From contig JBNZDD010013458.1 in NCBI GenBank assembly GCA_050575255.1, positions 376,432 through 440,431 on the forward strand: a DNA stretch of 64,000 nt. The letters are read 5' to 3'. Each line of letters opens with the position of its first letter. Positions within the stretch are counted from its first letter, which is position 1. The DNA comes from Harriotta raleighana. Its lineage: Eukaryota. This document shows positions 1,651 to 51,875 of this stretch, piece by piece. Position numbers and translations under genes: made by a program. The notes under the pieces are model-generated. The model saw only the letters and a list, made by a program, of their open reading frames with translations. It did not search any database and was not told where the DNA came from.

Positions 1651-3435
1651 GTACATCTTATAACATGATATTTTAACATTTTAACATCTTAAGCACCATC
1701 CGTGTCAGACACCCTTGTATTTTTCCTTAAAAATACATATCACTCTGCTAATAAACCAGTTAGTAGCTTTTATGTTACATTCAAATGTTATCAGTAGAGT
1801 CAGAAAATAAATCCTGCACAATTTATGTACAAGGCTGCAATATTCTGGAGTGAATTGTAAGTTGAAACCGAATTGAGGGGTTCAGTTATATCTACAGAAT
1901 CAGATCCCTGGAAGGGAGTTTGTAAGTTGGAATCTAACCAAGATTTCAGTTTACGGAAGTCAATTCAAAATTATTTGAGTTTTGATCCCAAAGTATACGT
2001 CACTGGAGCCCTTAGTTTACGGTTTGGCTTCTTATACACGGTTTTTGTTTAACGTTGTAGTGTCGTTTGTCCCACAAAATTCTGTATACAGTCAATTCAC
2101 TTTACAGTACTGTATATTCTTGGAAGCGTTTTGAGACGTCTCAAATACGTGATAAGACGCTATGTCAAATTATTAGATAAAAGAGCCTTTGCTGTACAGG
2201 GACACTGAATAGTGTGTCAATAGCTCGGAAGTTTGATGCCATCATATTCATGTGCAAAACAACATTTGATCTAGTGTGAGATGTTGTGGAGAATAACCAG
2301 CCTGAGTGGCAGAACTAAATCCCTTGTACACAATCTCCCAGCAACCAGAGAAGATTTAGGCATATATGGATTTCAGATGGCAACGCCTTTGTAGAGCTGT
2401 ATTTTTACATTTAAAGGCCAGATGATTGGTTTTACTTCCATTTTTGTTCAAGAAAGGAGACTTTCAATGAAGTAAGATTGAATCCCAATGTGTGTCAGGG
2501 CTTGGGTGATATTTTTCTGGCAGGTGCTTTCAAATGCACATGGGTTTGGCAGCACATTCTGTGTTGTTGATGCATGACACATTCCAGTATTTAAGACATT
2601 CAAGCCCACTAACAGAGTCTGCTATTAAATATTTCATTGAATCTCAGCTGCCCCCCCCAACCTACCCACCCAACACATCATCCCACCTACTCCCCCATTG
2701 AAACTCCCTCAGTTTACTGTCCCCAGATGCCCAGCTCCCAATAAGATCAATTCAATGCCTCTGGGATACATTAAAATAATATAACTGAACCCACTCCTGG
2801 AAAACATCATTCATCATGGCTGAGGTGCTAGCGAATAGTAAAATCTAAAAAAATCATAATTTGATGTGATTGAACCAGGCAAAACAATCTTTCAGATCCG
2901 TTCTATATTCCTGACCTACTACTAATGACCAGTGAACAGACTTCTTACAACTTTCTTTATATATTTACAAGCAATAAACTCAATATCCAACCCAACTGAA
3001 AGAAAGCAAGGACTTAGTGTGTAACCATAATTAACTTTATAATATTGCTCTTTTATCCACAGCCTAGTAAGCAGATGAAGCACGAATACAAGCTGCTATG
3101 GATAGCCCACAGGCCACTTAACATTGTTGTTTTACTTGTTAGACTCTCTTTATGTAATGCAAGTGCAGAAAGTGATCCAATGAGTATGAACTGTTCCAAG
3201 GCATTGTGGACAAAAAAATCCTTCTGAGTGTAGTGACTTTAAATTTAGATTTGTTGGCAAAAATATATCCCCAAATATTTAAAGTTTATTATGAGTTTAT
3301 TTAACACAAATGGGCAGTGGACTGCAAAGCCAATATATAAAATATCACCAAGATTGTTTGTCTTTCTCCTTACTTGTTGCATTATAATTATATTTGTATA
3401 CAAATGTAACTTTATTGCTGTTGTTATATTTATAG

Positions 3436-3595
3436 ACCAAAGCAGGAACTGCTGCACAAAGGCATCTCCCCTGCCTCAAGAAACTTCAGGAGGTCCTGGT
3501 AGTAATTGGAGGACGAGCAATGGAGGAGTCAGATGATGAAGATGAGGATACCCCAATGTTTTCGAGAAATGCAGGGTTTTATAATAACATGATCA
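3436..3595 (+). CDS. KLHL30: KLHL30 coding exon 2
   Basis: TTTATAG|ACC acceptor; reads TKAG...LQEVLVVIGGRAMEESDDEDEDTPMFSRNAGFYNNMI; donor A|GTGAGT. Confidence 0.92.
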
Positions 3596-3990
3596 GTGAG
3601 TTAATGTTATACAGGGCTTCGGGATATTAAGTGATATTTGCTGCAATTTTGAATCTTTGAATGCATGTGGCCTCGGTGATTGTATCTGATGAATGTTACT
3701 GCATGTCCTTATATATATGTTTTACAGAAAGTAATTCCCTCTTTTCATGGCACTGGAGTTACTTACTCCTGTCTAATCCTTTCCAATGGTGTATCTCATT
3801 CTTGTTGATCCATGTTGTAGTTCCTAGGATGTTTTTATTGAGTTTATTGGGAGTGGGAGGAGAGCTTTATACTGGCTTGAAGATCACTAGAAATACAATT
3901 ATTACTGCATTGTCTGGTGTCTGTATGTTTCACAACTTCTTATTTGTAGCTGATGATTTTACAGTGAATTTTATTCCTTTTTACCTTCAG

Positions 3991-4077
3991 GACGTTGGTT
4001 ACTGCTGCCAGATTTTCCTGATTACAACAAATGGGGATTTTCTGTTGTAGCCTTAAACAATGATGTATACATAACTG
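3991..4077 (+). CDS. KLHL30: KLHL30 coding exon 3 (Kelch)
   Basis: CCTTCAG acceptor; [28 protein letters not shown]; donor G|GTAAGA. Confidence 0.94.
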
Positions 4078-4434
4078 GTAAGATTTCCATCTGCAAAGCA
4101 TTAGTCAGAAAATGACCTAGAGCAGATTTTGTTGACTTGTTGGAAATCTTTAAACAGACTATGAGAAAGTGCTAATTAATGTTATTGAGATCCATTACAG
4201 TAGGGAAATTTCTACATCTCAAAACTTTTAAAGGATTTGCCGTAAAATATAGTGACTGTGTATTTTATAGGCAAAAGCAAAAGTTAAGTTTCGCACAGAA
4301 ATATTCCACTTGGATGGGAAAAGCAGAACAGAGCCCTTAATTTTTTTAAATTAAGGAAATGAATGATGAGATTTATTCTTTAAAATGTCTTCAATTCAAC
4401 CATCATCTGATGTTTTCCTTTATTGTCTTTCCAG

Positions 4435-4590
4435 GGGGATCCAGAGGAAGTACTCATGATACCTGGTCCACAACACAAGGGTGGAAATTTGATTCCAAAG
4501 AAGGGGTGTGGGTTCCGATTGCACCTATGTTAAAACCCAGAACCAACCATGCTACAGCAGTGTTGAATGGAGAAATTTATGCTGTTGGAG
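4435..4590 (+). CDS. KLHL30: KLHL30 coding exon 4 (Kelch)
   Basis: TTTCCAG acceptor; [17 protein letters not shown]...[23 protein letters not shown]; donor G|GTATCA. Confidence 0.94.
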
Positions 4591-4882
4591 GTATCAGATC
4601 AGGGATCACAGAATGAATTAAATGTGATATTGGAGAGGATGTAACTGAGAAATAATTGGAAACATAGTACAATAATTTGAATATTTACTTCACATTCCCA
4701 TGGAAGTAAAATACCGTAGTCTCAAATTGCCTGAATTCAATTTAGTTTCTAAAATGAGGAGTTCTGTTAATTCTAATAGTAGTCATAGCTGTATCACATT
4801 TTTGGATACAATATCCTAATTGTAAGAAATAGATCAACGTAGCTTGTGCTGTAATAAACTTTGATTTCTGTCTGAATTGTAG

Positions 4883-5071
4883 GGACGACATCAGATGTTG
4901 TGGAAGTGGAACATTACGATCCATACAATAACAACTGGTCTCTGATCAGCCCGACAGTGAAATATGTCAGTAACTTTACTGTGACAGGGTGCACAGGAAA
5001 GCTCTATGTGATTGGCTCCTGTGCAGCGAAGTACAATGCTCTCACTCTGCAATGCTACAATCCTGTTATAG
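4883..5071 (+). CDS. KLHL30: KLHL30 coding exon 5 (Kelch)
   Basis: TTGTAG acceptor; [18 protein letters not shown]...[25 protein letters not shown]; donor G|GTGGGT. Confidence 0.94.
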
Positions 5072-5231
5072 GTGGGTGTCTCACAGAAACAAAGAGAAAA
5101 TCACTAGTCCAAAGAATTTGATGTGCTCCATTTAGGTGTAAAATAAACAATAGCTTTGGGGGAAATTCAGGTTTCCTACATCCAGCTATTTTTTTTACTT
5201 TTTCAGTTGATACATTCAAATAAATACTACT

Positions 5232-5390
5232 AATATAATCCTTATACTTTATATAGCACCTTATCATATTTTCGAGATGTCCCAAAGCATTTCACGGGAT
5301 ACACTGTCAAGTGATATGGCTGTATATATTTTGTGGTTCAATTTGCACACTACAATGATCCCCAAGTAGACATGGAGTAAATGACCAATA
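5232..5390 (-). mobile_element. Diverged SINE 3' fragment
   Basis: Reverse complement of the SINE tail and core. Confidence 0.65.
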
Positions 5391-5886
5391 CTGTACATCA
5401 ACAATAAAGCTGCTCAGACAACAGCAGGAAATGTAATAACAGTATCCCTATACAACACTTAAATAAATGGTGAACAAAATGAAAAGAAATACAAATTTAA
5501 CAATAACTGCTGTTGATTCTCAGCATCTCATGTAGTTCGCGAAAGAGTGACATCAACAACAACAAAATTACATTTATAGAGCGCCTTTCAGGATGAGAGC
5601 ACGTCCCAAGGCACTGAACAATTAGGGGTTGGGAAGTAGTTTTCAAAAGCATGACACTCCTTACAAGAATGCACTATTAACTCATAATTTCTTCACATCT
5701 GTTTATTTCATCATATTAAGTACTGAATAATTATCTATTTAATCTATATAATAGAGGTTCAAAAACTGTATTGGAGCTCATTGTTTTTTACTACAAAGGT
5801 TACATTTCAAATCTTTTGAACCAGATGGTTGAAGTGGCTCGCAGAAACATATTATATCATCTGATGCATTTTATTTTCCTATCCAG

Positions 5887-6032
5887 ATAGCTGGAGTGTC
5901 ATTGCGTCTCCCTTCATTCCAAAGTACCTATCAGCACCTCGGTGTGTCTCTGTGGGTGGAGTAATTTATTTGATTGGAGACAACACAAAGAAGGTGTACC
6001 TGTATAACCCAGAAGCTAACATGTGGCAGAAG
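5887..6032 (+). CDS. KLHL30: KLHL30 coding exon 6 (Kelch)
   Basis: ATCCAG acceptor; [48 protein letters not shown]; donor AAG|GTGAGT. Confidence 0.94.
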
Positions 6033-6590
6033 GTGAGTCTAAAGAGTGTGACTCAGAAACAATTTCATTTTGGGGGGATTTCTTCTATACTCTCCTGCCC
6101 TGACTGAGTGAGAAGGTTCAGCAATTCATGAAGCATTCCATCGAGTAATGACTCAACTAAGAACTGCTCAATTTCATTCACAGAGACAAGTTGAATCTGA
6201 ATGTGGATTTGTACATGGAGCCATTTAATGGGAGTCAGTGACTTTTTCATTGGAGGATTTTTTAGTATATAGAATTTTTTAGTGTTCTGGAGTTTTTTTA
6301 CCTGAATGACTTGGCATGTTTATCTTGTGGAAAGCTAAGCCTTACAGATTTATTTTTATAGCGGGATATATTTGAACTTATGGTCATTTAAGAGTTAAGA
6401 TTATATTTAGTTTATATTTGCAATGACTGGCAGAGCCTGAGACAGAAAAGATATGTGACAGTGTGTCACATGGGGAATCCTGATCTATGATTCAATCCAT
6501 GTTATGCCTGCACCTGTTTAAACAGCAGATCAGATAACTCAGACTGAACAGAATCACATTGACACAGGTCCATCTGTATCAGCTCCATCT

Positions 6591-6870
6591 GGAGCTCCTA
6601 TAGCTCATTGGTTAGAGCACTCGACTTACAAGCATGAGACCTGTGTTTGAATCCAGGCAGATCAGGGTGAAACCTTAATCCGTTCAAAAATAAACACGTT
6701 AATAAAAATTGGTCATTTCAATCCACAACTGTTTGTGGAATGCTGCTGTGTGCAATTGGCTGCCGCGTTTCCCCCACAAATATACAATTAATTCACTTTA
6801 CAATATATTCTGTGAAGCGCTTTGAGAAGTTAAGAAAAGAGCAATATCAAATGCAAGGATTATTATTATC
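6591..6870 (+). mobile_element. tRNA-derived SINE, near full length (duplicate at 7690-7969)
   Basis: A box TAGCTCATTGG, B box GTTTGAATCC, Deu core, (ATT)n tail. Confidence 0.88.
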
Positions 6871-6944
6871 TTGACAACAACACTGTGGAAATTACAATAA
6901 GGTGATAACATAATTAATTCCTACTTTTGTTTATCTTCACAGAA

Positions 6945-7306
6945 CCTTGTTTTCAAATCCCTCCACTCCTCTGCACCTCCTACCTCTCTGACCTCCTTTC
7001 TCCTCAAACCAGCACCTGTTGCCTTTGCTGCACTGGGTCTGACCTCCTCCTTGTCCCCCGTATCCTCTGCTGCACCATCGGCGGCCTTGCCGTCAGCTAT
7101 TATGCCCCGAGGATCTAGAACTCCATTCACCTCTCCCCCTCTCTTCCCAGTTTCAAGTCTCAGCTAAAGACCTTTCTCTTCGACCATGCCTTTGGTCACC
7201 TTTCTCTCCCTGCCCCTGGCTCACCCCCGGGATCCGTTATCGTGAAGCACCCTGAGACGCGTCTGGCATGGAGGGCGCTATATGAATCAAAGTTTTGTTG
7301 TTGTTG
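6945..7306 (+). mobile_element. L2-clade LINE 3' fragment (duplicate at 8044-8405)
   Basis: Degenerate L2 ORF2 C-terminus (FKSLH..APYLSDLL, LKTFLF) and (TTG)n tail. Confidence 0.85.
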
Positions 7307-9196
7307 ACTAGTGTAATTGCCACCAAGCAATTGTTCCTGAATTTACCACTGAATGTTACCTGCCATGATTAGGTGCTAAGCTGTAGAACATTTGATATAT
7401 NTGAATGACTTGGCATGTTTATCTTGTGGAAAGCTAAGCCTTACAGATTTATTTTTATAGCGGGATATATTTGAACTTATGGTCATTTAAGAGTTAAGAT
7501 TATATTTAGTTTATATTTGCAATGACTGGCAGAGCCTGAGACAGAAAAGATATGTGACAGTGTGTCACATGGGGAATCCTGATCTATGATTCAATCCATG
7601 TTATGCCTGCACCTGTTTAAACAGCAGATCAGATAACTCAGACTGAACAGAATCACATTGACACAGGTCCATCTGTATCAGCTCCATCTGGAGCTCCTAT
7701 AGCTCATTGGTTAGAGCACTCGACTTACAAGCATGAGACCTGTGTTTGAATCCAGGCAGATCAGGGTGAAACCTTAATCCGTTCAAAAATAAACACGTTA
7801 ATAAAAATTGGTCATTTCAATCCACAACTGTTTGTGGAATGCTGCTGTGTGCAATTGGCTGCCGCGTTTCCCCCACAAATATACAATTAATTCACTTTAC
7901 AATATATTCTGTGAAGCGCTTTGAGAAGTTAAGAAAAGAGCAATATCAAATGCAAGGATTATTATTATCTTGACAACAACACTGTGGAAATTACAATAAG
8001 GTGATAACATAATTAATTCCTACTTTTGTTTATCTTCACAGAACCTTGTTTTCAAATCCCTCCACTCCTCTGCACCTCCTACCTCTCTGACCTCCTTTCT
8101 CCTCAAACCAGCACCTGTTGCCTTTGCTGCACTGGGTCTGACCTCCTCCTTGTCCCCCGTATCCTCTGCTGCACCATCGGCGGCCTTGCCGTCAGCTATT
8201 ATGCCCCGAGGATCTAGAACTCCATTCACCTCTCCCCCTCTCTTCCCAGTTTCAAGTCTCAGCTAAAGACCTTTCTCTTCGACCATGCCTTTGGTCACCT
8301 TTCTCTCCCTGCCCCTGGCTCACCCCCGGGATCCGTTATCGTGAAGCACCCTGAGACGCGTCTGGCATGGAGGGCGCTATATGAATCAAAGTTTTGTTGT
8401 TGTTGACTAGTGTAATTGCCACCAAGCAATTGTTCCTGAATTTACCACTGAATGTTACCTGCCATGATTAGGTGCTAAGCTGTAGAACATTTGATATATA
8501 GTATCAAGTTGTTGTATTGTATCTTTCCTATTATTCTACTTTTTTTTTAAAAAGGAAGCTCACTTCAATTTCAACCTTTCCTGCAGGGATGACTTGTGCT
8601 GTGTGCAATTGATTGCTGTATTTCATCCACAAAGTATACAGTCAATGGACTTTATAATATATTCTATGACGTGCAATGTCATGGTGAGGTGCTATATCAA
8701 AAGCAAGGATGATAATTATTATAATTCCCGCCCTCTGTGGCATATTGCTCAAATAATACTTCTCTATTTATGAGCCTGCCTATTCCACTCTGTTTTATGG
8801 TAATGAACAGATAATAATAATAATCTTTTCATTTGATAGAGTGCCTTATCATCAATACATAACAAGTCTGACCAATTGCTTCTTGCTGGTCTATATCACA
8901 AATCTATTTTTACATGCATCCAGCTTGATGATTTTTTATAACACTGATGAAACTATCTAGAAATTCAAACAAATATAATTTATCAAATAAAATAATTTCG
9001 AAACCCGGTTGTATTACATCATTGACCTAACCAATTATTTATTGTATATGTATCTTATGATCTGTTGTAGATATATCTCTTTGCCTTTGTTCATGTTCAT
9101 ATCTGATAATCCCACTGACCTATTCTTCCACCAATTAATTAATACACTGAACTTCTACCTGTCTCATGATCCATAATTTTTTTTCTCCTGTTGTAG

Positions 9197-9445
9197 GTTC
9201 AGCTCCTACACAAGCTACATGAGAATGGAGGTATGGTGGTGATTGCTAGGAAGATCTATGTGACTGGTGGCCACTGGAAAGGAATGGAAGGAGACTACAG
9301 TGTAGAGATGGAGATGTATGATTGCACTAAAGATGTATGGAGCATTGAAGGCTTCTTGCCTTGCCATTGGTTCTATCACAGTTCCTGTTCTATTTTCATC
9401 GATCCGTCCAGATGGACTGAGCCATTTCCACAGAGCAATGCCTAA
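9197..9445 (+). CDS. KLHL30: KLHL30 last coding exon
   Basis: TTGTAG acceptor; [42 protein letters not shown]...PFPQSNA-stop; the 7 exons total 1761 nt = 586 aa plus stop. Confidence 0.94.
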
Positions 9446-10482
9446 AATAATGATCACAAACTCTTCTGGATTGAGGTCTGTTGTCACCCCCAAAGTAACC
9501 AACATATTACCAAATATTAGAACAGTTTGTGGAAGATATTGCAGTGAATTGTACGCTTTCAGAGGTGACAAAACTGAAGGTGTGAATGCTTTCCATGTAA
9601 AGCTTCCTCTTTATATGCTGTGTGGTTAAGTTAAAGAACTACAATACCCTTATGCTAAATGGAGGCCATCTCTGGAAATCCCTGAGGATAAGATTCACTT
9701 ACTGACGAGAATGCACTGCCTGGGGTCTGTGCCCTATCTAGCATTAATTTGAACAAAGTGAAGCTGAACACCTTATTTATTTTAAGCTTAGTTGCAAAAG
9801 TGAAAGACTAGATTATCGATTTAACTGATGAAGCTCCTGGAGATAGGCCAATACTGGACAGTAACACTAGCGTCTACCGTACAGTAATTCTAGTTCCAGC
9901 AAACTCAGGCTCACCAGCATGGGTGCCTCTGTTGGAATCCTGCAACAGTACAACACTCACCATTACAGTAACAACAAGGTGCTTCGAACAGTAACAACTC
10001 GGTCCACATAAAATGATAAAGCACTTAACAACAAAAGCAATTACCCACATCTTTCTGCAGGTTTAAGAGCAGAAATAGCAGGGAATGCTAAAATTCCACC
10101 AGTCATGTTTTTCATGTTTGTAAAATATTTCTTCTCCTTGACAGTTTCCTCAGCTGAAGGCCAGGTGTGACCTTGTTTGCAAGAGTTAAAGGAGTTAAAT
10201 GGTTTGACCCTCTCTAATTTCCTCTCCCAGAGCTTTGCCAAATTCACCTCAGGGGGAATTTTTCTGGTATCCTGTCAATCCATTGCAGGAAATATGCCAA
10301 GCTACCGATCGGATATTCCCCACGTCTCTGGTCTGTAGGAGTTCCTGATTAAACACAAACAACAATTTGCATTTATAAAGCCCCCTTCACGCAGTGTAGC
10401 ATCCCGGATCACTTCATAGTGGCAGAGACTGATACTGAGCCAGGGAGAGATGGAGTTTATGGAGGAGGACAGAAGCGTAATC

Positions 10483-11277
10483 AAATTTGGGAGAAGAAAT
10501 GAAGGGAGGCAATATAGACTAGATAGTGCAAATTTAAATGGTGTGAAGGAACAGAGAGACCTGGGGATTTGTGTTAGTGACTCGTTGAAGGTGGCAGGTC
10601 AGGTAGACAAGGCTGTTAAGAAGGCATATGGGATTCTAGGCTTTATAAATAGGGGTATAGAGTACAAAAGTCAGGAAGTGCTGACTAACCTCTATAGAAC
10701 TTTGGTGAGGCCTCAGCTGGAGTACTGTGTTCAATTCTGGTCACCACACTATAGAAAGGATGTGAAGGCATTGGAAAGGGTACAAAGAAGATTTACTAGG
10801 ATGGTGCCAGGATTGAGGGACTTCACCTATGAGGAAAGGCTAGATAGGCTAGGGTTATTCTCTCTAGAACAGAGAAGATTGAGGGGAGACCTAATAGAGG
10901 TTTATAAGATCATGAGGGGTTTCGACAGGGCAAATAGAGAAAAACTATTTCCACTTGTGGGCGAATCTGTGACCCGTGGTCACAGATTTAAAATAGTTTC
11001 AAAGCGAAGTAGAGGGGAGCTGAGGAGAAACTTTTTCACTCAGCGAGTTGTTCGAATCTGGAATGCATTGCCTGAAAAGGTGGTGGAGGCTGATTCGATA
11101 ACAACTTTTAAAAGGGAATTAGATCTTTATTTAGGGAGAACAGGTCTATTAGGCTATGGGGAGCGAGCAGGGCAGTGGGATTAAATCGCTCTTTTCAAAG
11201 AGCCGGCACAGACTAGATGGGCCGAATGGCCTCCTTTTGTGCCGTAAACTTCTATGAATCTATGAATCTATGAATCT
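10483..11277 (+). mobile_element. CR1 LINE, 5'-truncated, open ORF2 C-terminus, inserted into an older L2 fragment
   Basis: LYRTLVRPQLEYCVQFWSPH...RRLRGDLIEVYK...FFTQRVVRIWNALP; (ATCTATGA)n tail; L2-like minus-strand sequence on both sides (10353-10482, 11278-11350). Confidence 0.95.
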
Positions 11278-11802
11278 AAATCGGAAGGTCTTTAGGTGGG
11301 ATTTGAAAGCGGGATGGAGAGCTCACAGTGAAGAGCATTCCAGAGTTTATGTCATCCCAAACATTAGGGATGAAATACATGTATGCTACATCCTGTGTCC
11401 CAGGAAAGCTAAAGAAAATTAGGTCTGGGGTTGAGAAATTTCAAATAAAGCAGCAATATTCAGCTCATGTGTGGTTTGACAGATTTTGATTGCACAGTGC
11501 TGATGATGAGACCAACCCTTCAAAACAACAACAGTTTGAAGGATAATGAACGAGGAAGGCAATAAAGCTGTCAATCAATCTGAAGGACCACACAATTACC
11601 TGGTATTACCTGTGCAGCTGGATAGATTTTGAGCACCAGCCATTGTGGTGTTAAAGAGCAGATTGCAAGGGGTGCAGGGATTGTAAATAGAGTATTCTTT
11701 AAAATACAGTGTGAGGATTTCCAAAATCATTGCATGAATCAGCAAAGTAAAACCTGGTGCTAGAAAAGGTGGGGAATCTGCACAAGAAGAAACAGCTGAG
11801 TG

Positions 11803-12135
11803 AACAACAACAACAAAATTATATTTATAGAGCGCCTTTCATGTCAGGAGGACATCTCAATGCACTGAACAGTTAGGTCAAGACCTGAGCAAGGGGGAGG
11901 TGCAGGGTAGTGGGAAGGGGAGGGAGAGAGTTGGGAGGGTGGCAGAAGGCATGATCGAAGAGGAGGGTCTTGAGACCGGCCTTGAAGGACGCAAAGGAGG
12001 AAGCAAGGTGAAAGGACTGTGGTTGGAGTTCCAGATTGTAGGAGCAGAGAGGCTGAAAGCCCGTCCAATGATGGTAGGGTGGGTCAGGCAGGGGACATGG
12101 AGCAACCGGAGCCCGCTGAAAGGAAGGGGCGGGGA
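11803..12135 (-). mobile_element. L2 LINE 3' fragment
   Basis: (CAA)n tail on + strand; GRAFSLSAPTIWNS and LKTLLFDHAF on - strand. Confidence 0.88.
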
Positions 12136-12239
12136 GTTTCATAAGGAGACAGCAGGTCGGAGTGATCTTGATGCATGGTGGAGTCATGGTACCACATGCA
12201 ATGTAGCAAATTATAGTACTTTGAATTCACTCACAGATA

Positions 12240-12980
12240 CCGTTAACCCTCGTTGATTGCGGGGGTTACGTTCCTGGAAAACTGCGCACTCAATAAAATC
12301 ACTTTGGGTAAGCTTAAGCAGTAATGGGAAACAGAGGGTTAGGGGAATCCAGTCACAGGCTACCCACCTCAAGCCGTAGAAAGCCGCTCGAGGGGGTGGG
12401 GGGGGTTGGCAGAGAGCCGCTCCGATTGGGGGGAGCAGAGAGCCGCTCGGGGTGCGGGGGAGCAGAGAGCAGCTCGGAGGTGGCAGTGGAGAGCAGAGAG
12501 GCGGGTGGTTGGGGAGTAGAGAGCTGTTCTGGGGTGGACGGGAGGCCGGCTCCGGCTTTGTTATCGTTTTATTGTTACAAAGCGATAACAAAGCAGTAAA
12601 GCAATAAAAAGAAAGCAATAAAACCACAGTTAGGCTCTCTTGAGATTCTCTCTCTGTCTCTTTTGTTTACTCTGCAATGCCATCAGGATGCTCCGAGGCC
12701 GAAGAGTTATCGGACTTACCCAAGAATGCATTGCGCGCAGGGCCAGCCAGCCAAGGAATCATCGGCTTTAGTTGGGATCTGCCGGCCTTGTCAAAAGTGC
12801 ACATGCGCACGGGACCAGCCATCTGAGGAATCATCAGATTTAGTCGGGAGCTGTCAGCGTCCTTACCAGCCAGCGTGTATACACAAGTTTTACGCGCGCT
12901 GCACAAAAAAGTGATGCTTTTGTTTCGTCGCATATATTGAATTTGCAATCGATAAAGTCTTCTTTGACGAGGGTGAACTG
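12240..12980. mobile_element. Tigger/pogo-like non-autonomous DNA transposon
   Basis: TA|CCGTTAACCCTCGT ... ACGAGGGTGAACTG|TA imperfect TIRs with TA target duplication; MER2-like GGGGGTTACGTTCCTGGA near the left end. Confidence 0.75.
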
Positions 12981-13339
12981 TACTTAGAACTTCTTTTAAC
13001 TGCAGTATAGTTATTAACATGCAGATTTGGTAATATTGACTTTGAAAAAATTGTGACATGAGCTGTGAAGTAATGGAGCAGATAATATTAATCGTTGAAT
13101 ATGACAACACTAAAACAATTCAAAATGTTTCACAGATAGCTGCTGTCAAGTGTAGAGACTGTATTTGTAGACAGATAAAGCAGGCAATATGCTCACAGCA
13201 TAATCCCACAAACAGCCTTGACGTGAATGACCAATTTTCTTCAATGAAAAGACGGCAAGAGTACAGAGTATTCACACTGGCGCTATTGAAATCTGTATCC
13301 ACTAGATGGAGCTGGAATCTACAATGTGCGACAGTTTGG

Positions 13340-13722
13340 CTCAGTTTGCAGCACTTGCATGTTGGTGAGAGGGTTGTGGTTTAATCACACAGGCAGACAT
13401 TGAGCTCAGAATCTAGGTTGAGAGGTGCAATTTTGAGGTACCGCAGAAATGTCGGAGATTTGGATGAGGTGTTAAACTGAAATCCTGTCTGTGGTTTCAG
13501 GCAGATGTTAAAGATTCCACAAGCACTCTTTGGGAGAAGAGCAAGTAGTTCTTGCTGTGTTCAGGCCAATATTACTACCTTATTCAAACATACCCAGAAA
13601 CAGATTATTTGCCATTCATTTTGTTGTTGCTTGTACACTTTCATAGTACAGATCAGCTGTTCACCTACGTAGCAGCAGTACTACACTTCAAAGTAACTCA
13701 TCTTTTGACATTGATAAGATAT
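13340..13722 (+). mobile_element. Ancient full-domain DeuSINE (SacSINE1/AmnSINE1-like)
   Basis: Degenerate Deu landmarks GGATGAGGTGTTAAAC, CAGATGTTAAAGATTCC, GAAGAGCA, GGCCAATATT, CAGATTAT, CTACACTTCAAAGTA. Confidence 0.7.
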
Positions 13723-13723
13723 A

Positions 13724-14725
13724 CAGGCAGTCCTCTAGTTACGACGTTTCGAGGTACGACAATTCGAAGTTACGACACTTAAAATCAGTAAAATTACGTC
13801 CGAGTTACATCCAAGTTCTCGAAGTTACGACACTACTATGTAAATGCTTTAGTTGCCCCACGCGCGATAGAAACCTGGAGTCGCCGCCCTCAACACTTAC
13901 GGGACCACGATACGCGTTCAGGAACAGGATGGAGGCGAGACGCGAGTGTGTACTGTACAGGTACTGTGTGAGTCTGAGCATGGCGGGACAGTACTCTCCA
14001 GCCTTTAGACTGCGCTACNNNNNNNNNNNNNNNNNNNNNNNNNNNNNNNNNNNNNNNNNNNNNNNNNNNNNNNNNNNNNNNNNNNNNNNNNNNNNNNNNN
14101 NNNNNNNNNNNNNNNNNNNNNNNNNNNNNNNNNNNNNNNNNNNNNNNNNNNNNNNNNNNNNNNNNNNNNNNNNNNNNNNNNNNNNNNNNNNNNNNNNNNN
14201 NNNNNNNNNNNNNNNNNNNNNNNNNNNNNNNNNNNNNNNNNNNNNNNNNNNNNNNNNNNNNNNNNNNNNNNNNNNNNNNNNNNNNNNNNNNNNNNNNNNN
14301 NNNNNNNNNNNNNNNNNNNNNNNNNNNNNNNNNNNNNNNNNNNNNNNNNNNNNNNNNNNNNNNNNNNNNNNNNNNNNNNNNNNNNNNNNNNNNNNNNNNN
14401 NNNNNNNNNNNNNNNNNNNNNNNNNNNNNNNNNNNNNNCGTGTGATCTCCTGTGTTGCGCTACATCGCGTGTGATCTCCTGTGTTGCGCTACATCGAGCA
14501 CCAGACTCACAATGAAGCCAGGTAAGTACATAGTAATATTTTATTTTATTTACAGTACTGTACATATTAGGAGGGGTGCAGGGGAGAGAGGGCAGCTCAC
14601 TATACACTACAACCAATCACTGTATGTTACTGTAAGCATTATAGGGGGGTGACTCGACTTATATACAAATTCAACTTACACCACATCTTAGGAACCTAAC
14701 CCTGACGTAACTTGAGGACTGCCTG
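13724..14725. mobile_element. Tigger-like DNA transposon spanning a 420-N gap
   Basis: TA|CAGGCAGTCCTCTAGTTACG ... CGTAACTTGAGGACTGCCTG|TA; 20-bp TIRs with one mismatch and TA TSD. Confidence 0.88.
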
Positions 14726-15517
14726 TATCAAAAGAAGATATTATTTATCTCTGTGCCCTATCTCTGTGTGGATGGATAATGCTGTGATCCTGAACTCTAT
14801 TTTTACCCTCCAGATAACAGCATCTAGTCAACTGAAAGCTACTTTAGATTAGAGCACTATCAGTTTATAGTGATCTGGTCAAGTCATAGGTGGAAGAAAA
14901 ATAGTTCTTGGAACATTTTGGAAATATATATTTCACGAGTTTGTAAAATTATATGAACTTGAGACTGTTAAGCTGTTGCTTGCAGGCCATGTGAGGTTGT
15001 GAGATGAGATAGCAAACATGATACAGTAGAGTGCTACAAACTATTTGCACTTTCAGATTTAAATTGGTATCAAGCACAGAACACAGAGAGTAAACTAACC
15101 AAAACACAAAAGATTGCATTTATGTAGAGTTTTCATATTGGGAGGACGTCCCAAGGGGGAAAAAAACAGCTCTGACTGGCATTGTAAAGTTTGTGCTTGG
15201 CTGGGGCAGCTCTTGTGATAGGTAGAGCACACACCAGTTAAAGGGGATGGTATGCAAGTATCTATACTGCTAATGTGTGCTGGGTGAAGAACACAAAAAT
15301 TGTCTCAAAAACTTTATGAAAAGGGTGCCCATTATAAATTGAAAATGTCACTCAGACGAGTAATTATTCAAACATTATTTTTATGTGGGTGCATATTGCT
15401 TTGTGTATATGATTGTGTTTCCATGCTGATATTCAAACTTGCAGAGTAATGTAACCCTGCATATTCATTGATCAATATTGTACCATCACACTAAACATGA
15501 GGTTCTGTATCCAACAT

Positions 15518-15912
15518 AAACAACAGCAACAGCTTTGATTTATATAGCGCCCTCCACGCCGGGCGGCGTCTCAGAGCGCTTCACAATAGCGGATCCCAGG
15601 CCTGAGCCAGGGGCAGGGGTAGAAAGGTGACCAAAGGCGCGGTCGAAGAGAAACGTCTTCCGCTGGGACCTGAAACTGGGAAAAGAGGGGGCAAGGAGCA
15701 GGGAATGAGGAAGGGAATTCCAGAGCCTCGGAGCATAGTGGTTGAAGGCACGGCTGCGAGGGTGGAGCGGAGGATTCGGGGGACATGGAGGACGCCAGAC
15801 CTGATGGAGCAAAGGCAATAGATGCTGGTTTGAGGAGAGAGGAAGTCAGAGAGGTAGAGAGGTGCAGAGGAGTGGAGGGATTTGAAGACGTGGGTGAGGA
15901 TCTTGAAATCAA
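15518..15912 (-). mobile_element. L2 LINE 3' fragment
   Basis: IDFKILTHVFKSLH...RAFNHYAPRLWNSLP...KTFLF; (TTG)n tail on - strand. Confidence 0.9.
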
Positions 15913-16083
15913 TCACTTTATTCATCACTTTATGACATAATATCTGTGCAATTGACTTAGTTTGAATCCAACCATTTGCATGAACATAACTCCCTTCACA
16001 ATGGATAACTCTTGGAGTGTTGAAAAGCTGCTGCATTTTTAGAGATAAATGCACTGAATAATTAGATGATATTGCAGTCCCAA

Positions 16084-17215
16084 ATACAATAACAACAACA
16101 ACTTTGATTTACACAGCGCCCTCCGCGCCGGATGGCGTCTCAGAGCGCTTCACAATAGCGGATCCTGGGACCGAGCCAGGGGCAGATAGGTGACCAAAAG
16201 CGCGGTCAAAGAGAAAGGTCTTCAGCTGTGACCTGAAACTGGGGAGGGGGGTGAGGCGAAGGGAGTGAGGAAGGGAGTTCCAGAACCTCGGGGCATAGTG
16301 GCTGAAGGCACGGCCACCGAGGGTGGGGCAGAGGATTCGGGGGACATGGAGGAGGCCAGACCCACAAGAGCGAAGGCAGTGGGTGCTGGCTTGGGGGTAG
16401 AGAAGATCGGAGAGATAGGGGGGTGCAGAGGAGTGGAGGGATTTGAAAACAAGGGTGAGGACCTTGAAGTCGATCCTCTGGGTTAGGGAGCCAGTGAAGT
16501 CTGGCAAGGACTGGGGTAATGGGGGAGCAAAGCTTGGAGCGGGAGGCAGAGTTTTGGATGAACTGGATTTTATGGATTGTGGTGGAGGGGAGACCGGAGA
16601 GGAGGGCATTGCAATAGTCCAGCCGAGAGGTGACAAAGGCATGGACCAGGGTTTCAGCGACTTTTGGAGTGAGGTATTGCTGGAGATGGGCGATCCATCG
16701 GAGGTGGTAGAAGGCAATGCTGGTAACGGACCGGATGTGGAGGAGGAAGGACAGTTGGGGGTCAAGCCTAGTTTGCACACCAGTTCAGAGAGTTTTAGGG
16801 GCAGGCCGGGAAGATGGAGGAGGTGAGAGCCGTGTGAATGGAGACATTGATGAGAGCCAAAGATTATAGCCTCTGTCCTGTCGACATTCAGCTGCAAGAA
16901 ATTTGCGCTCATCCAGCCCCTGATGTCTGAAAGGCAGGATGACAGAACATCAGGGGACTGGGGATCGCAAAGTGAGGTGGAGAAATAGAGTTGCGTGTCA
17001 TCTGCATACATGTGGAAGTGTGCCCCATGTCTGCGGATGACATCCCCAAGAGGGAGATGAGGAAAAGGAGGGGGCCAAGGATGGATCCCTGGGTTACCCA
17101 ACAGGTAACTGGGTGAGAGTGGGAGAGAAAACCGTTTGTGGAGATATACTGCTGGCGGTTTGTGAGGTAGGACTCGAACCAGGTGAGTGCAGTCCCACTG
17201 AGGTGGACCGCACTT
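16084..17215 (-). mobile_element. L2 LINE, 5'-truncated, RT C-terminal half with frameshifts
   Basis: PLGDVIRRHG.FHMYADDTQLY, LVHAFVTSRLDYCNALL, RIDFKVLTLVFK; (TTG)n tail. Confidence 0.93.
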
Positions 17216-18469: not shown

Positions 18470-18722
18470 GAACTAAAACAAAAAACAGAAATTGCTGGGA
18501 ACATTCAGCAAGTCGGGCAGCATCTATTGAGAAAGGAAAGTGAGTCAACGTTTCTGGTCCCCGACTCTTTGTCAGGACTTCTGATGTCCGTTCTGATGCC
18601 ATGTACCCAAAACGTTGACTCTCTTTCCTTTCTCTATGGATGCTGCATGATCTGTTGAGTGTTCCCGGCGATTCCTGTTTTTGTTTTAGACTTCCAGCAC
18701 CTGCAGTTTTTTGTATTCTATT
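18470..18722. mobile_element. Penelope-like non-autonomous palindromic element
   Basis: Inverted arms AAAACAGAAATTGCTGGGAACATTCAGC...GAGTCAACGTTTC and AAAACGTTGACTC...CCTGTTTTTG, with decayed hammerhead cores. Confidence 0.75.
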
Positions 18723-21539: not shown

Positions 21540-22700
21540 CTGTTTATCAGCACACTGAGGGACAGCTCTGTGCTGTTTATCAGCACACTGAGGGACAGCT
21601 CTGTGCTGTTTATCAGCACACTGAGGGACAGCTCTGTGCTGTTTATCAGCACACTGAGGGACAGCTCTGTGCTGTTTATCAGCACACTGAGGGACAGCTC
21701 TGTGCTGTTTATCAGCACACTGAGGGACAGCTCTGTGCTGTTTATCAGCACACTGAGGGACAGCTCTGTGCTGTTTATCAGCACACTGAGGGACAGCTCT
21801 GTGCTGTTTATCAGCACACTGAGGGACAGCTCTGTGCTGTTTATCAGCACACTGAGGGACAGCTCTGTGCTGTTTATCAGCACACTGAGGGACAGCTCTG
21901 TGCTGTTTATCAGCACACTGAGGGACAGCTCTGTGCTGTTTATCAGCACACTGAGGGACAGCTCTGTGCTGTTTATCAGCACACTGAGGGACAGCTCTGT
22001 GCTGTTTATCAGCACACTGAGGGACAGCTCTGTGCTGTTTATCAGCACACTGAGGGACAGCTCTGTGCTGTTTATCAGCACACTGAGGGACAGCTCTGTG
22101 CTGTTTATCAGCACACTGAGGGACAGCTCTGTGCTGTTTATCAGCACACTGAGGGACAGCTCTGTGCTGTTTATCAGCACACTGAGGGACAGCTCTGTGC
22201 TGTTTATCAGCACACTGAGGGACAGCTCTGTGCTGTTTATCAGCACACTGAGGGACAGCTCTGTGCTGTTTATCAGCACACTGAGGGACAGCTCTGTGCT
22301 GTTTATCAGCACACTGAGGGACAGCTCTGTGCTGTTTATCAGCACACTGAGGGACAGCTCTGTGCTGTTTATCAGCACACTGAGGGACAGCTCTGTGCTG
22401 TTTATCAGCACACTGAGGGACAGCTCTGTGCTGTTTATCAGCACACTGAGGGACAGCTCTGTGCTGTTTATCAGCACACTGAGGGACAGCTCTGTGCTGT
22501 TTATCAGCACACTGAGGGACAGCTCTGTGCTGTTTATCAGCACACTGAGGGACAGCTCTGTGCTGTTTATCAGCACACTGAGGGACAGCTCTCTGCTGTT
22601 TATCAGCACACTGAGGGACAGCTCTGTGCTGTTTATCAGCACACTGAGGGACAGCTCTCTGCTGTTTATCAGCACACTGAGGGACAGCTCTCTGCTGTTT
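21540..22700. repeat. Minisatellite, 35 x 33 bp (CTGTTTATCAGCACACTGAGGGACAGCTCTGTG)
   Basis: Counted from the translation, ([11 protein letters not shown]) x 35; only 3 units near the 3' end carry a G>C variant. Confidence 0.97.
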
Positions 22701-23834: not shown

Positions 23835-23972
23835 GAGTTCTGATGAAGGATCGTGGACCCGAAATGTTGACTCGCTTTCCTTTCTCCATGGATGCTGCCT
23901 GACCTGCTGAGTTTCCTCAGCAACTTCTGTTTTTGTTTCAGATTCCCAGCATCTGTAGTATTTTGTGTTTTG
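23835..23972 (+). mobile_element. Penelope-like terminus with minimal type I hammerhead ribozyme motif
   Basis: GAGTT-CTGATGA-AGGATCGTGGACCC-GAAA-TGTT-GACTC followed by GATGCTGCCTGACCTGCTGAG... Confidence 0.75.
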
Positions 23973-24289
23973 TTTGAGTTAGCAGGTGTTGTATTAGAAA
24001 AAAGAACAGTATTGATTAGCTGATTAACATGGCACACAAGTGCTTTTGTATGTGATGCCATCTGAACCCTCTGATGTTAAGCTAAATAATTGTCTTCAAT
24101 TTAACTAACATTTAATACTTGATTCTAAAGGTTTTCCTTCAACAAAATAGGAAACTGAGTACAGTATATGTTTACTCACCAGTGGAGTATCTCACTCCTC
24201 CAAGTTAAGGTATCATCATTAGACAGTTGGATCATTAGAGTGGCAGCAGTATATAATGTTTACAAGTATTTGAGTGGTTGTCCCATAGA

Positions 24290-32974: not shown

Positions 32975-33487
32975 ACTGCCTCACCCCTCACGCTGCTGAA
33001 ATACTAGTTCACGCCTTCATCACCTCAAGGCTGGACTATGGGAACTCTCTCCTCGTGGGGCTTCCCGGCTCCTCCATCCACAAGCTGCAGGTCATCCAGA
33101 ACTCTGCAGCTCGTGTTCTCTCCCGCACCAGGCTTCGAGACCACATCACTCCCACCCTCGCCCGTCTCCACTGGCTCCCCATCCCCCAGAGGATCGACTT
33201 CAAGATCCTCATCCTCACCTACAAGGCCATTCACGGCCTTGCTCCCTCCTACCTCTCCGACCTAATATCCCCCTATCTACCTGCCCGTACCCTCCGTTCC
33301 TCTGGCTCTGGTCTGCTCCACATCCCCTGCCNNNNNNNNNNNNNNNNNNNNNNNNTCCCACCCTCCCCCTCCCCCCTCGCCCTGAACATTTCCCCCTGCT
33401 CGGGTCTTAAATCATCTGTCCAGCGCCTTGGGACGTCCTCCTGACGTGAAACGCGCTCTATAAATGTAATTTTGTTGTTGTTGTTGT
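32975..33487 (+). mobile_element. L2 LINE 3' fragment (24-N gap at 33332-33355)
   Basis: [13 protein letters not shown]...[24 protein letters not shown]; (TTG)n tail. Confidence 0.92.
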
Positions 33488-37539: not shown

Positions 37540-38935
37540 TCTAACAGAGATCTTCAAATTTCTGAACTTTTGAGAGGATTTGTGAAAGATTATTCTGCAA
37601 TGAGTAGGTATGATCTCAGGATTGTGGCTGGAAGAGATAAGGAAGAGGTTAGAAGCAACTCTTTCATGCTGATAGTTACCATTATATGGAATGCTTTGTC
37701 ACAAATAGCTTCAGAGTTTGATAACTTTTCAATCAATCAATCAATCCAAATTACATTTATATAGCGACTTTCAAGTCGGGAGGATGTCTCAAGGCACTGT
37801 ACAGTTAAGTAGGGATCAGAGCGTGGTGGGGAGGGGGAAGGAAAGTAAGAAAAAATGGATTGTATATTTGTGGGCGAAACACGGCAGCCAAATTGTGCAC
37901 AGCAGTGTCCCACAAAAGTCATGGAATTGGGGTTAGGGAGAAAGGGGGGAAAAATGGCAAGAGAAGGGGTCGGGGTAGGAGAGCAGGAAAAACTAACTGT
38001 ATATTTGTCGGCGAAACGCGGCAGCCAAATTGCGCACAGCAGTGTCCCACAAACAGTCGTGGAAGTAGGGCCGCGGGAGAAAGGGGGAAAAGAGGGTAAG
38101 GGGGGAGACGGAGGGAAACGCGGGGTGGGATAAAATAAGAGAGGAAAAGGGGTGAAGAAAGGGGGAAGGGGGAAGTCAGGGAGGAAAAGGAGGAAGAAAG
38201 GGGCGCAAGAGGGAGGGAAAGATGAGATTTTTGGCTTTGCCCATATAGATATATTATTCCAGCTGTGCTTGAATGAATGAGTAAGTGAGTGACACAGTAC
38301 GACAAATTTCAACTCTACTTATAAAGGTGGGTGGGGGGCAAAATCAGGAAGAAATGGGGAGAAAGTAAGGTAAGAGGGAAGAGGGGGTAAGAGGGGGGAA
38401 GGAGGGAAGAAGAAGAAAAGGAGGGGGAAAGGTCAGGGGGCAGGGGCACCAAACAACAGAAACAAACCACAACATTAACAACAATAAACAAAAAAAAGCA
38501 ACAGCAACAACAATCAACAACATTCCAGCAACCACTCCCTGTCCTCGCCGCCCGCCTGGACAATATTGAAAAAGGCGGGATCCAGGCCCATGTAATGAAA
38601 GGCCCCAAAATCGACCGGCTCCTCAGCTGGTGACCAGGTGAATTCGATGAGGGCTCTGGTACCTCGGATATGGCATGTCTGGCCAGTTCATCTGCAGCAA
38701 CAGCTCGACCGCCGTCGGGATCTCCTGCAACGAGATGGTCTCCCGTGATGAGATGGTCCACTTTAGATCTTAGCAACATTTAAAAAGGATTTGGATCAAC
38801 ATTTGTAGGAGAATATAAAAAATGTACAAGGAAAGAGCAGGGTCTTGGGATTAGAGTAACTGTTGTTAGTGGAGGAGCTAGAAACATATTAAGCTGAAGG
38901 GCCTCAGGGCCTCTTCCTCTGATGTGATTCCTATG
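37540..38935 (+). mobile_element. Old CR1 3' end, interrupted at about 37729-38765
   Basis: EVRSNSF...VTIIWNAL left of the insert; TFKKDLD and 3'UTR GGAAAGAGCAGGG...GCTGAAGGGCCT right of it. Confidence 0.65.
37729..38765 (-). mobile_element. Composite retroelement: L1-like ORF2 C-terminus, pyrimidine-rich 3'UTR with two Deu cores, L2-type tail with (TTGA)n
   Basis: Frameshifted RETISL..PTAV..EL...E...ILGPFITW on - strand at about 38590-38760; Deu cores at about 37856-37925 and 37996-38063; tail CGCTATATAAATGTAATTTGGATTGATTGA. Confidence 0.6.
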
Positions 38936-39714
38936 AGAGTGAATAAATCCATAGTTGTCTCAGGCTTAGAGCACATTTGTGATAGAAATATTTAAAAATC
39001 AGACTCAAGAGCTTGGATGATTTATTTGAATACGTAACAATGATTCTTGAAATAAGGACTAAAAAAAGAAATGTGTGGAATGCAGCATTGAAAGTAATAT
39101 GTGAAAGAGTTAGTGTGAGCAATCAACGAGACGAAGTTCTAGTCCAAAATGGCTTGCCAAACTCACTCTCCATATATCATGCCCATATTTGCAATGTGGA
39201 GATTTTTGGCTTTGCCCATATAGATGTATTATTCCAGCTGCGTTTGAATGAATGAGTAAGTGAGTGACACAGTACGACAAATTCCATCTCTACTTATTTT
39301 ACAAAAGATTTCAACAATTCTGCTCAATAAATCGACTATACTTGGTTTGCCCTCACCATCATTTCACAAAATGTATTCATTTAAATCCACAGGATACTGT
39401 ATATTGTATAAATTGGTTATGAGCAACAATTAAAAAATGTTAATTACAATGAAAATCAGCTTGCTGGTAATTAACTTAGACAATGTTGTGAAAAGCGTGA
39501 CATACTCACTGAGAATGCTGTGTTGGAATTCTTTCACCTATACTGTGTTATCATCACTTCTTTCTTCATAAATACTGTGTCCCATAGTGTGGTGACATGT
39601 GGTCATTAGTATACAAAGCAATCAGGAAATCAGGAAATCAATCTAACAGGGATCAAATCTGTAATAAAGTGAAAAAAATTGAGTTTATCCTAATTTGATA
39701 TACCATCTATAACA

Positions 39715-48169: not shown

Positions 48170-50335
48170 ATTATGTAATAACATACGACTGAGATATGAT
48201 AAGTGTCAGGCCCAGAATACAGAATTCAACCAAAATCGGAATATAGGAAGTGCCGGAGAGAACTAAAAAAAGAAAGATAGAGGGGCAAAAAGAATGCATG
48301 AGAAACAATTAGCAGGTAACATTATAGGGAATCCTAAGGTATTTAACAAACATATTAAGGGTAAAAAGATTGGCCAAGAGTAGGGTGGGGCCAATAAGGG
48401 ACCAAGGAGGAAATTTTGGTTGAGGGCATGGCTGATGTACTGAATGAGCACTTTGCCTCTGTCTTCACAAGAGAAGAAGATGCAGCCAATGTCACAGTAT
48501 TGGAGGAGAGTGTAGTATAAATGGATAAGATAAGCATAACCAGAGAGGAAGTACTAAAAAGGTTGACGGCGCTCAAGGTAGACAAGTCACCCGGTCCGGA
48601 TGGGATGCATCCTAGGTTACTAAGGGAAGTATGGGAGCAAATAGCAGAGACTCTGGCCACAATCTTTCAATCCTCCTTGGAGACAGGGGTGGTACCAGAG
48701 GACTGGATGGTGGCTAATGTTACTCCCCTGTATAAAAAGGGGCAGAAGGACAAACCTGGGAACTACAGGCCAGTCAGTCAGTAGTGGGCAAACTTCTAGA
48801 GTCTATAATCAGGGACAAAATAGATCTTCACTTAGAAAAATATAAGCTAATAAAGGACAGCCAGCATGGATTTGTTAAAGGCAAATCTTTCCTTACAAAT
48901 CTAATATAATTTTTCAACGATGTAACAGAATGGGTGGACGAGGGCAGCGCAGTTGATGTAATTTACATGGTCTTTCAAAAGGCATTTGACAAAGTGCCGC
49001 ATGAGAGACTTATTTGGAAGGTAGAGGCCCATGGCATTAAAGGCTCAGTGGCAGAGTGGATCCACAACTGACTGCGAGACAGAAAGCAGAGGATTGGGTG
49101 AGAGGCTGCTTTTCAGACTGGAGGGAAGTGTGCAGTGGCATCCCCCAGGGATCAGTTTTGGGACTATTGCTCTTTTTAATATACATTAATGATTTGGGTT
49201 TAGGGAGTATGATTTCCAAGTTTGCAGATGATACTAAGTTAGGGAGAATAGTAAATAGTGAGGAGGATAGTAGCCATCTGCAAGAGGATATAGATAAAAT
49301 GGTAAAGTGGGCAGACACATGGCAGATGAAGTTTAATACAGAGAAGTGTGAGGTGATACACTTTGGGAGAGGAAATGAAGGGAGCCAATATAGGCTAGAT
49401 AGTATAATTTTAAGGGATGTGAACGAACAGAGAGACCTGGGGATTTGTGTTAGTGACTCTTTAAAGGTGGCAGGACAGGTAGACAAAGCCGTTAAGAAGG
49501 CATATGGGATACTGGGCTTTATAAATAGGGGTATAGAGTACAAAAGTTAGGAGGTGCTGATTAACCTCTATAAAACTTTGGTTAGGCCTCAGCTGGAGTA
49601 CAGTGTACAATTCTGGTCACCACACTTTAGGAAGAATATTAAGGTATTGGAAAGGGTGCAGAGGAGATTTACTAGGATGGTACCAGGAATGAGAGACTTC
49701 AGCTATGAGGAAAGGCTAGATAGAATAGACTTATTCTCTCTAGAACAAAGAAGATTGAGAGGAGACCTAATAGAGGTTTTTAAGATTATGAGAGGTTTCA
49801 ACAGGGTGAATAGGGAAAGACTGTTTCCACTGGTGGGCGAATCAGTGACTCGTGGTCACAGATTTAAAATAGTTTCAAAATGAAGCAGAGACGAGCTGAG
49901 GAGAAATTTTTTCACTCCGCGGGTTGTTTGAATCTGGAATGCATTGCCTGAAAAGGTGATGGAGGCAGATTCCATAACAGCTTTTAAAAGAGAACTAGAT
50001 CTTTAATTAGGAAGAGCAGATCTGTTAGGTTATCAATCAATCAATCAATCAAAATTTTATCTATATAGTGCCTTTCACGTAGGGAGGATGTCCCAAGGCG
50101 CTGTACAGTCAAGTAGGGGGGAAGGGGTCGGGGGAAGGAAAGTAGGAAAAATTGACTGTATATTTGTGGGCGAAACGCGGCAGCCAAATTGCGCACAGCA
50201 AATAATGTCTATGGAGTGTGTTGGTTATGGAGAGAAAGTTGGGCAGTGGGATTGAGTTGATCTGTTCAAAGAGCTGGCACAGACTAGATGGGCCGAATGG
50301 CCTCCTTTTGTGCTGTATAATTCTATGATTCTCTG
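48170..50335 (+). mobile_element. CR1 LINE, about 2 kb, 5'-truncated, disrupted RT
   Basis: DKSPGPDGMHPRLL, PGNYRPVS, GIPQGSVLG.LLFLIYINDL, FADDTKL, RPQLEY; CR1 3'UTR; interrupted at 50034-50222. Confidence 0.95.
50034..50222 (-). mobile_element. 5'-truncated copy of the (TTGA)n-tailed composite element, inside CR1, with GGTTAT TSD
   Basis: Collinear with 37729-37905; GGTTAT at 50028-50033 and 50223-50228. Confidence 0.85.
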
Positions 50336-51538: not shown

Positions 51539-51875
51539 GGAGCTCCTGTGGCTCAGTGGTTAGAGCACTCGCCTTACATGCCTTACAAGCATGAGGCCTG
51601 TGTTCGAATCCAGGCAGATCAGGGCGAAACCTTGGGCAAGTTTCCTTACTCCACATGCCTAATAATAATCCCTCCAAAAAAAACTACAATAATAAAATTG
51701 GTCATTTCAATCCACGACTGTTTGTGGGACACTGCTGTGCGCAATTGGCTGCCGCGTTTCGCCCACAAATATACAGTCAATTCACTTTACAGTATATTCT
51801 GTGAAGCGCTTTGGGACGTTGATAAGATGTGAAAAGCGCTATATCAAATGCAAGGATTATTATTATTATTATTAT
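51539..51875 (+). mobile_element. Young full-length tRNA-derived SINE (CORE-like + Deu core + L2 tail; resembles SINE2-1_CM)
   Basis: A box TGGCTCAGTGG, B box GTTCGAATCC, CCTTGGGCAAG, TGTTTGTGGGACACTGCTGTGCGCAATTGGCTGCCGCG, tail GCAAGG(ATT)n; CpGs intact. Confidence 0.92.

Follow-up and report, generated by a model that had tools for sequence, protein, structure and literature searches.

SVA_F1 is an L1-driven retroposon. Splicing joined MAST2 exon 1 to SVA to create it; its 3' end is poly(A), and about 84 copies are present in the reference (PMC12593883). In platypus, a chimera of a small non-coding RNA (a snoRNA) with an RTE partner has reached about 40,000 copies (PMC5499810). Holocephalans carry the CmiSINEs (SINE2-1_CM) and SacSINE1-CM, with tRNA heads and Pol III boxes, and the tails of holocephalan SINEs are tied to the LINE L2-2_CM (PMC5499810). 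In Pseudocercospora, a histone H3 gene carried as cargo in a hAT DNA transposon has given rise to hundreds of dead copies (PMC6710886). In bipartite LINEs, presumed to be transcribed by Pol II, a LINE supplies both ends, and the cited part of PMC5786205 reports such elements from no groups other than RTE, Ingi, Vingi and R2. It also describes SINEs with a 'GC-rich head of unknown origin' and without a known small-RNA head. As far as the cited passages go, described SINE heads derive from small RNAs, and, mammalian-type L1 aside, LINEs are believed to copy no RNAs but those bearing their own tail (PMC7245038, PMC5786205); a structure in the tail of the RNA is presumed to be required by non-L1 LINEs (PMC7245038).

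The window, that is, the whole stretch of 64,000 nucleotides of Harriotta raleighana DNA analysed here, contains one copy, truncated at its 5' end, of a non-autonomous retroposon family of ~1.1 kb. The front half of this family consists of a histone H2B variant joined to part of RUNDC1 exon 1, and its back half ends in an L2-type tail. We consider it probable that the family is copied by an L2 reverse transcriptase (RT) and has a Pol II start at a YY1/TISU-like motif in its CpG-rich front end. As in SVA_F1, the first exon of a host gene regularly forms the 5' part of members of a non-autonomous retroposon subfamily, but the Harriotta family joins two host genes without splice joints, bears an L2-type tail and numbers thousands to tens of thousands of copies. 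With the CmiSINEs and SacSINE1-CM, whose partner is L2-2_CM, it shares a holocephalan host, non-autonomy and an L2-related tail, and its 70-nt module comes from a SINE of their general build; unlike them it has a head derived from mRNA and contains T runs, and the cited portions of PMC5499810 make no mention of H2B. The platypus chimera likewise joins a cellular RNA to a LINE tail and spreads like a SINE, whereas the Harriotta head comes from a protein-coding mRNA. In Pseudocercospora, too, a mobile element multiplied a histone gene; here, however, a retroposon has the histone sequence as its front end. The elements of PMC5786205 are alike in presumed Pol II transcription or in a GC-rich head, but the GC-rich head of the Harriotta family is traced to host genes. 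Topical literature searches gave no description of an H2B–RUNDC1 retroposon family; Repbase and Dfam may contain it unannotated.

The window copy and its sister copies

The window copy runs from 38760 to 37729 on the minus strand (Table 1). An extent of 37729..38765 had been given in the first-pass annotation, of which the 3' end stands and the 5' end has to be moved to 38760, AAAGT being present at both junctions. The 5' junction is spanned without differences by one contig from another sample. The observed/expected ratio of CpG is 0.77 within 38540-38765 vs 0.32 in the whole window, and the copy diverges by 9.3% (5.9% outside CpG) from the majority sequence of the youngest group. Rfam gave no match above the gathering score in the window copy, and ARAGORN found nothing.

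Table 1. Parts of the window copy and related elements in the window
Feature	Position	Strand	Remarks
H2B-variant CDS remnant, from last third of fold to penultimate codons; frameshifted, 5'-truncated	38624..38760	-	aligns to H2B-variant retrocopy L087
RUNDC1 exon 1 remnant (~residues 27-104), with internal deletion typical of later subfamilies	38525..38623	-	aligns to RUNDC1-only copy L197 and basal copy L193
(GTT)n-rich tract, directly 3' of RUNDC1 piece	38452..38524	-	tandem repeat, period 3
Pyrimidine-rich degenerate repeat units, part 1	38327..38451	-	
105-bp insert, from local flank 39199-39303, orientation kept	38222..38326	-	~95% identical, 5 differences
Pyrimidine-rich units, part 2	38064..38221	-	
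SINE module, copy 1; common to 3' half of local tRNA-headed SINE	37991..38063	-	69/73 columns identical to SINE 51539-51872
SINE module, copy 2	37854..37925	-	self-match 81.6% over 136 nt
L2-type 3' tail	37748..37805	-	48/57 nt identical to end of LINE 32979-33487
(GATT)n terminal microsatellite	37729..37747	-	
Probable 5-bp target duplication AAAGT	38760..38764, partner 37724-37728		short, hence modest support
Second copy, 5'-truncated: part of module, spacer, tail, ~22 extra nt	50034..50222	-	
Local tRNA-headed SINE, donor of 70-nt module	51539..51872	+	
3' fragment of young L2-type LINE sharing the tail; candidate partner lineage	32979..33487	+	

The duplicated SINE module and the L2-like (TTGA)n-type tail noticed at first reading are both present, the tail as (GATT)n and the module with a duplication unit of ~138 nt, spacer included. 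What had been read as a T/C-rich UTR is indeed pyrimidine-rich, but it includes a 105-bp copy of DNA from ~440 bp outside the window copy. This sequence occurs at just these two places genome-wide, and in 0 of 29 other copies of the family. Its five differences suggest that the insert is of the same age as the element insertion or younger, and it seems to be a templated copy, made in a repair-type event or by a template jump. The second copy, also claimed earlier with a target duplication of its own, is flanked by GGTTAT at 50028-50033 and 50223-50228 (6 bp), and it interrupts a LINE that we take to be CR1-like. The label 'Deu core' given to the module is doubtful, because the module (positions 172-244 of the 333-nt local SINE) sits in the last 160 nt of that SINE; in the cited part of PMC5499810, the last ~160 bp are a 3' end that SacSINE1-CM has in common with CORE-type CmiSINEs, and the Deu match is located apart from it, at SacSINE1 positions 124-258.

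Elsewhere in the window, a 1098-bp tandem pair (6303-7400 and 7402-8499) is 100% identical with a single N between and is probably an assembly artefact; a 66-bp tandem array of ~17.6 copies, 98-99% identical, lies at 21540-22700; and a palindromic MITE-like element at 18473-18689 has a second partial copy at 23836-23975.

With the 5' half as query, a genome search yielded 3452 first-look candidates. Forty were scored, and 29 other loci were fetched. The module and tail lie downstream in 27 of these 29 loci, which bears out the co-occurrence of the two halves and the earlier suggestion of a composite non-autonomous element with an L2-type tail moving as one unit. Two or more modules are present in 18 of the 29, and 23 of 28 tails at sister loci end in GATT. 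A full copy reads, in order, an AA(A/G)ATGGCGG start, H2B, RUNDC1, (GTT)n, pyrimidine units, one or two SINE 3' modules, ~57 nt of L2 tail and (GATT)n. When the tail was the query (3596 candidates, 29 other loci examined), the module was directly upstream in 27/29, the H2B or coding-like part was reached in 3/29, and a LINE ORF lay directly upstream of the tail in 0/29.

To estimate copy number, 60 stretches of large contigs, placed at round-number positions (578,094 non-N bases in all), were sampled. They contain 15 tails, all of the H2B–RUNDC1 family, 3 RUNDC1 remnants and 1 H2B remnant, and most of the 15 copies are 5'-truncated. Extrapolated genome-wide from these 60 stretches, there are ~29,000 tails (16,000-47,000), 5,700 RUNDC1 remnants (1,200-16,700) and 1,900 H2B remnants (50-10,600). 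An excess of tails over RUNDC1 and of RUNDC1 over H2B is what 5' truncation in a LINE-driven element would be expected to produce. Four sampled loci (L244, L257, L260 and L270) form a sub-branch that ends in (TAAA)n rather than (GATT)n and has near-identical spacers; it is possibly the youngest branch. Segmental duplication was considered as the source of near-identical pairs and rejected, since in 5 of 6 pairs similarity does not extend beyond the element; the exception, L097/L098, is a duplicate.

Host-gene sequences in the front half

The peptides RETISL/PTAVEL, ELARHAISEV and NSPGHQLRSRSILGPFITW reported in the first-pass annotation exist on the minus strand, in two frames, but the origin proposed for them, the end of an L1/Tx1 ORF2, gives way to matches with H2B and RUNDC1; the motif ILGPFITW, taken for the L1 ORF2 end, is a RUNDC1 remnant. 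The frame of the window copy has H2B as its best PDB match (E 0.2), and no L1 ORF2p is among its matches at E<=1. Sister copies match H2B at E 1e-10 or better; the open frame of L020 has 174 PDB matches at E<=0.01, the best 60 of which are H2B-length chains, almost all named H2B. None of the decayed H2B and RUNDC1 frames passed the Pfam cut-off (0/14, 0/5 and 0/4), whereas sequence searches did match. Used as a genome query, H2B gave 150/150 scored matches, with 7 intact genes on top followed by a long series of ~50% identity, and the latter carry the other parts of the family.

One locus, L087, is a whole H2B-variant retrocopy fused to the 3' half of the family, and it led to intact Callorhinchus proteins annotated as 'late histone H2B.L4-like'. 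The majority of four basal copies agrees with one Callorhinchus variant, P0125, at 70/75 residues, vs 57/75 with the intact local variant L067 and 58/75 with canonical H2B, and it carries 8/9 diagnostic residues. P0125 is also the best-scoring H2B for 82 of 90 element loci, and with tblastn it matches the window at 38751-38695 and 38707-38663 (E 0.002 each). L067 was rejected as the parent, with 11 vs 15 diagnostic bases in addition to the residue counts. An intact orthologue of P0125 was not found in the Harriotta raleighana assembly. The second intact variant (L067/L068, on contig C13217) lies near H4 and H1-like genes and has its own retrocopy, L156; L160 is a further H2B-variant pseudogene.

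In basal copies the frame runs on into RUNDC1, with 338 proteins at E<=0.001 and Callorhinchus RUNDC1 as the best; basal copy L172 shows 81% identity to the latter over 95% of 62 aa (E 7e-20). The host RUNDC1 gene is on contig C13201, 90% identical in its last exon; its exon 1 was not found in the assembly, in which the C13201 region has gaps. In the family, the H2B and RUNDC1 parts meet at a short CCAG..G overlap, where a stop is created two codons before the natural end, and in later subfamilies, the window copy included, ~100 nt of the RUNDC1 piece are deleted. Two copies on contig C13349 (L197 and L199), which represent one event tandemly duplicated, contain RUNDC1 residues 2-111 and no H2B and end at the same (GTT)n joint as the family. 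This RUNDC1 5' retrocopy is a candidate for the precursor state.

The 5' end and the subfamily ladder

Where an RT might have been expected on extension of the consensus, the copies share one 5' end ~260 nt upstream of that of the window copy, and no RT is present. Among 76 copies with a complete fold start, at loci chosen by 5' queries, 48 reach the head; 28 of these begin with AA(A/G)ATGGCGG or a near match, the ATG motif being absent from the other 20, and the bases 5' of position -4 differ little from background. The head is GGC-rich and aligns to the N-tail of the H2B variant, which is rich in glycine. The first bases may derive from H2B or from RUNDC1, because RUNDC1-only copies start with AATGGC too. 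The front half is a CpG island (68% GC, 63 CpG in 506 nt). In the four full copies examined, T4-T8 runs start ~400 nt into the element, which speaks against Pol III transcription; a Pol III box had no match in three of the four, and one stray hexamer occurs in the fourth.

The TISU core AAGATGGC, located between +5 and +30, is a transcription element of YY1 (PMC2518114), and a YY1 site is required for accurate L1 initiation (PMC8535693). The 5' motif of the family resembles both, and together with the CpG island it makes an internal Pol II promoter of YY1/TISU-like type plausible. It could be proposed further that the family is Pol II-driven, SINE-like and self-renewing, its promoter and head having originated within histone coding sequence of the host. 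A YY1/TISU site in the glycine-rich tail of the H2B variant would have made a two-gene retrocopy into a master whose copies could in turn give rise to masters at any site of insertion; this we hold in about even balance.

Trees of the fold DNA (89 rows with >=200 profile columns out of 117 hits, and 27 of those 89 rows) have the shape of a ladder that leads from H2B genes through L087 and basal copies to nested younger groups, and four starred nodes along the ladder in the 27-row tree have values of 99/98, 100/99, 100/99 and 99/96. Copies in all groups are 6-11% from their own majority (non-CpG median), and in the youngest group the median is 10%, or 7% outside CpG. On the divergence clock of ~1e-3 per site per Myr in PMC5499810, the youngest group would be roughly 60-100 Myr old, and far older at the slower rate that this paper also quotes. 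If the family lacked its own promoter, a single chimeric retrogene or a few of them, under host germline promoters, could have produced it as a burst of processed pseudogenes with the same parts and L2 tail. A single ageing master locus would also yield a ladder, and extra upstream bases common to the members of four pairs (L004/L050, L051/L059, L041/L055 and L074/L075) indicate that transcripts can start in flanking DNA. These extra bases, however, differ between pairs, which points to several source loci; the majority sequences have drifted by ~0.2 per site from basal to youngest, which set against the 6-11% divergence of copies fits repeated rounds of copying or concurrent masters; and the 5' end is sharp at the YY1-like motif. 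We thus regard a family without its own promoter as unlikely.

Protein constraint was lost along the ladder. Between H2B genes and the basal majority, dN/dS is 0.24-0.31, and between the basal and the youngest group it is 0.98. It is very unlikely that the copies are by-products of a functional H2B-RUNDC1 fusion gene, or that translation of the RNA was needed for movement. In favor of a fusion gene are a continuous 170-aa frame in L033, which opens at the 5' ATG, crosses the H2B fold and continues in the RUNDC1 frame, several large indels in frame, and a synonymous excess among shared changes, which appears as a small excess over all non-CpG changes of the youngest group (0.348 vs 0.291, P 0.0005). 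But the ratio of ~1 along the masters does not fit, the whole fold is kept in frame in 1/77 copies, and a reading frame maintained from the 5' ATG is rejected, this ATG being in frame with the fold in 6/24 youngest-group copies. Private changes in copies are neutral and without synonymous excess, and the pN/pS of 0.5-0.75 in copies was rejected as a sign of constraint because mutation spectrum explains the private changes.

The tail, the candidate partner and the place of the family

The 57-nt tail is identical at 48-51 of 57 nt (84-89%) to the end of the young LINE family represented at 32979-33487. Forty scored copies of this LINE are 99% identical, other copies have an RVT_1 reverse transcriptase upstream, and no match to L1 ORF2p was found in PDB. 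The loci L126-L155 and L278-L307 belong to the same family; their copies are 99-100% identical, and the family has therefore been active very recently. From its C-terminal pattern we take it to be of the L2 clade; this C-terminus is not recognised by Pfam. The name L2 would also be consistent with the lack of a PDB match to L1 and with the link to L2-2_CM in the cited part of PMC5499810. This LINE family ends in (GTT)n, and LINEs ending in (GATT)n were not encountered, so it is a candidate partner. Across 36 tails of the element, the LINE and the SINE, a stem of 7 pairs is conserved; covariation is weak (one double change at 3/7 pairs), and folding z-scores are +0.17 to -1.49. Some basal copies end in (GTT)n or in the (ATT)n tail of the SINE, which indicates that tails were swapped. 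Judged from the tail sequence, mobilisation by L2 is likely.

Another LINE, CR1 or a different L2 branch, might instead move the RNA, the tail match then reflecting descent from an L2-dependent SINE. The terminal GATT, against GTT in the L2 family found, and the related tail of the local SINE would agree with this, but the close match of the tail to the LINE's own end and the visibly different CR1-like end at 11220-11280 make it extremely improbable. An L1/Tx1 element with an acquired L2/SINE 3' end has nothing in its favor beyond a motif likeness and merits virtually no credence, given the H2B and RUNDC1 matches in place of an ORF2 C-terminus, the discrete 5' end, the lack of an RT and the GATT rather than poly(A) ends.

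Returning to the origin from two host mRNAs and an L2-type tail, the RUNDC1 5' piece would first have been joined to the (GTT)n tract, and H2B-variant mRNA would have been added by template switching at the short overlap. The tail stem-loop would then be recognised by the L2 enzyme, and copies retaining the 5' motif would be able to become new masters. On the features tested, such a family works like a SINE and is built like SVA_F1, and it falls outside SINEs, SVA, L1, bipartite LINEs and simple processed pseudogenes. It has in common with SINEs the tail shared with a partner LINE, non-autonomy and the lack of a working protein; a strict SINE, with a small-RNA head and Pol III boxes, is rejected by the alignment of the head to the H2B-variant N-tail. 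A processed pseudogene would have a single parent mRNA and poly(A), and its copies would radiate from that gene; two parents, a LINE tail and a ladder of masters do not fit this. An SVA-like composite with a VNTR core and poly(A) does not fit either, as only low-score short repeats and a GATT end are found. In a bipartite non-autonomous LINE the 5' part would come from the partner LINE, whereas here, beyond the first ~10 nt, it is derived from H2B.

These results have a practical side as well. Only 7 intact genes are among the 150 scored H2B matches, so histone gene counts and variant calls in chimaeras will be inflated unless the H2B–RUNDC1 family is masked. In this family, pieces of ordinary mRNAs were provided with an L2 tail and multiplied into the thousands. 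Because intermediates survive in the genome, the steps by which a non-autonomous family is born can be traced. If the self-renewing Pol II-driven reading is true, it would add a class of heads from protein-coding mRNA, served by a type of LINE thought not to copy mRNAs.
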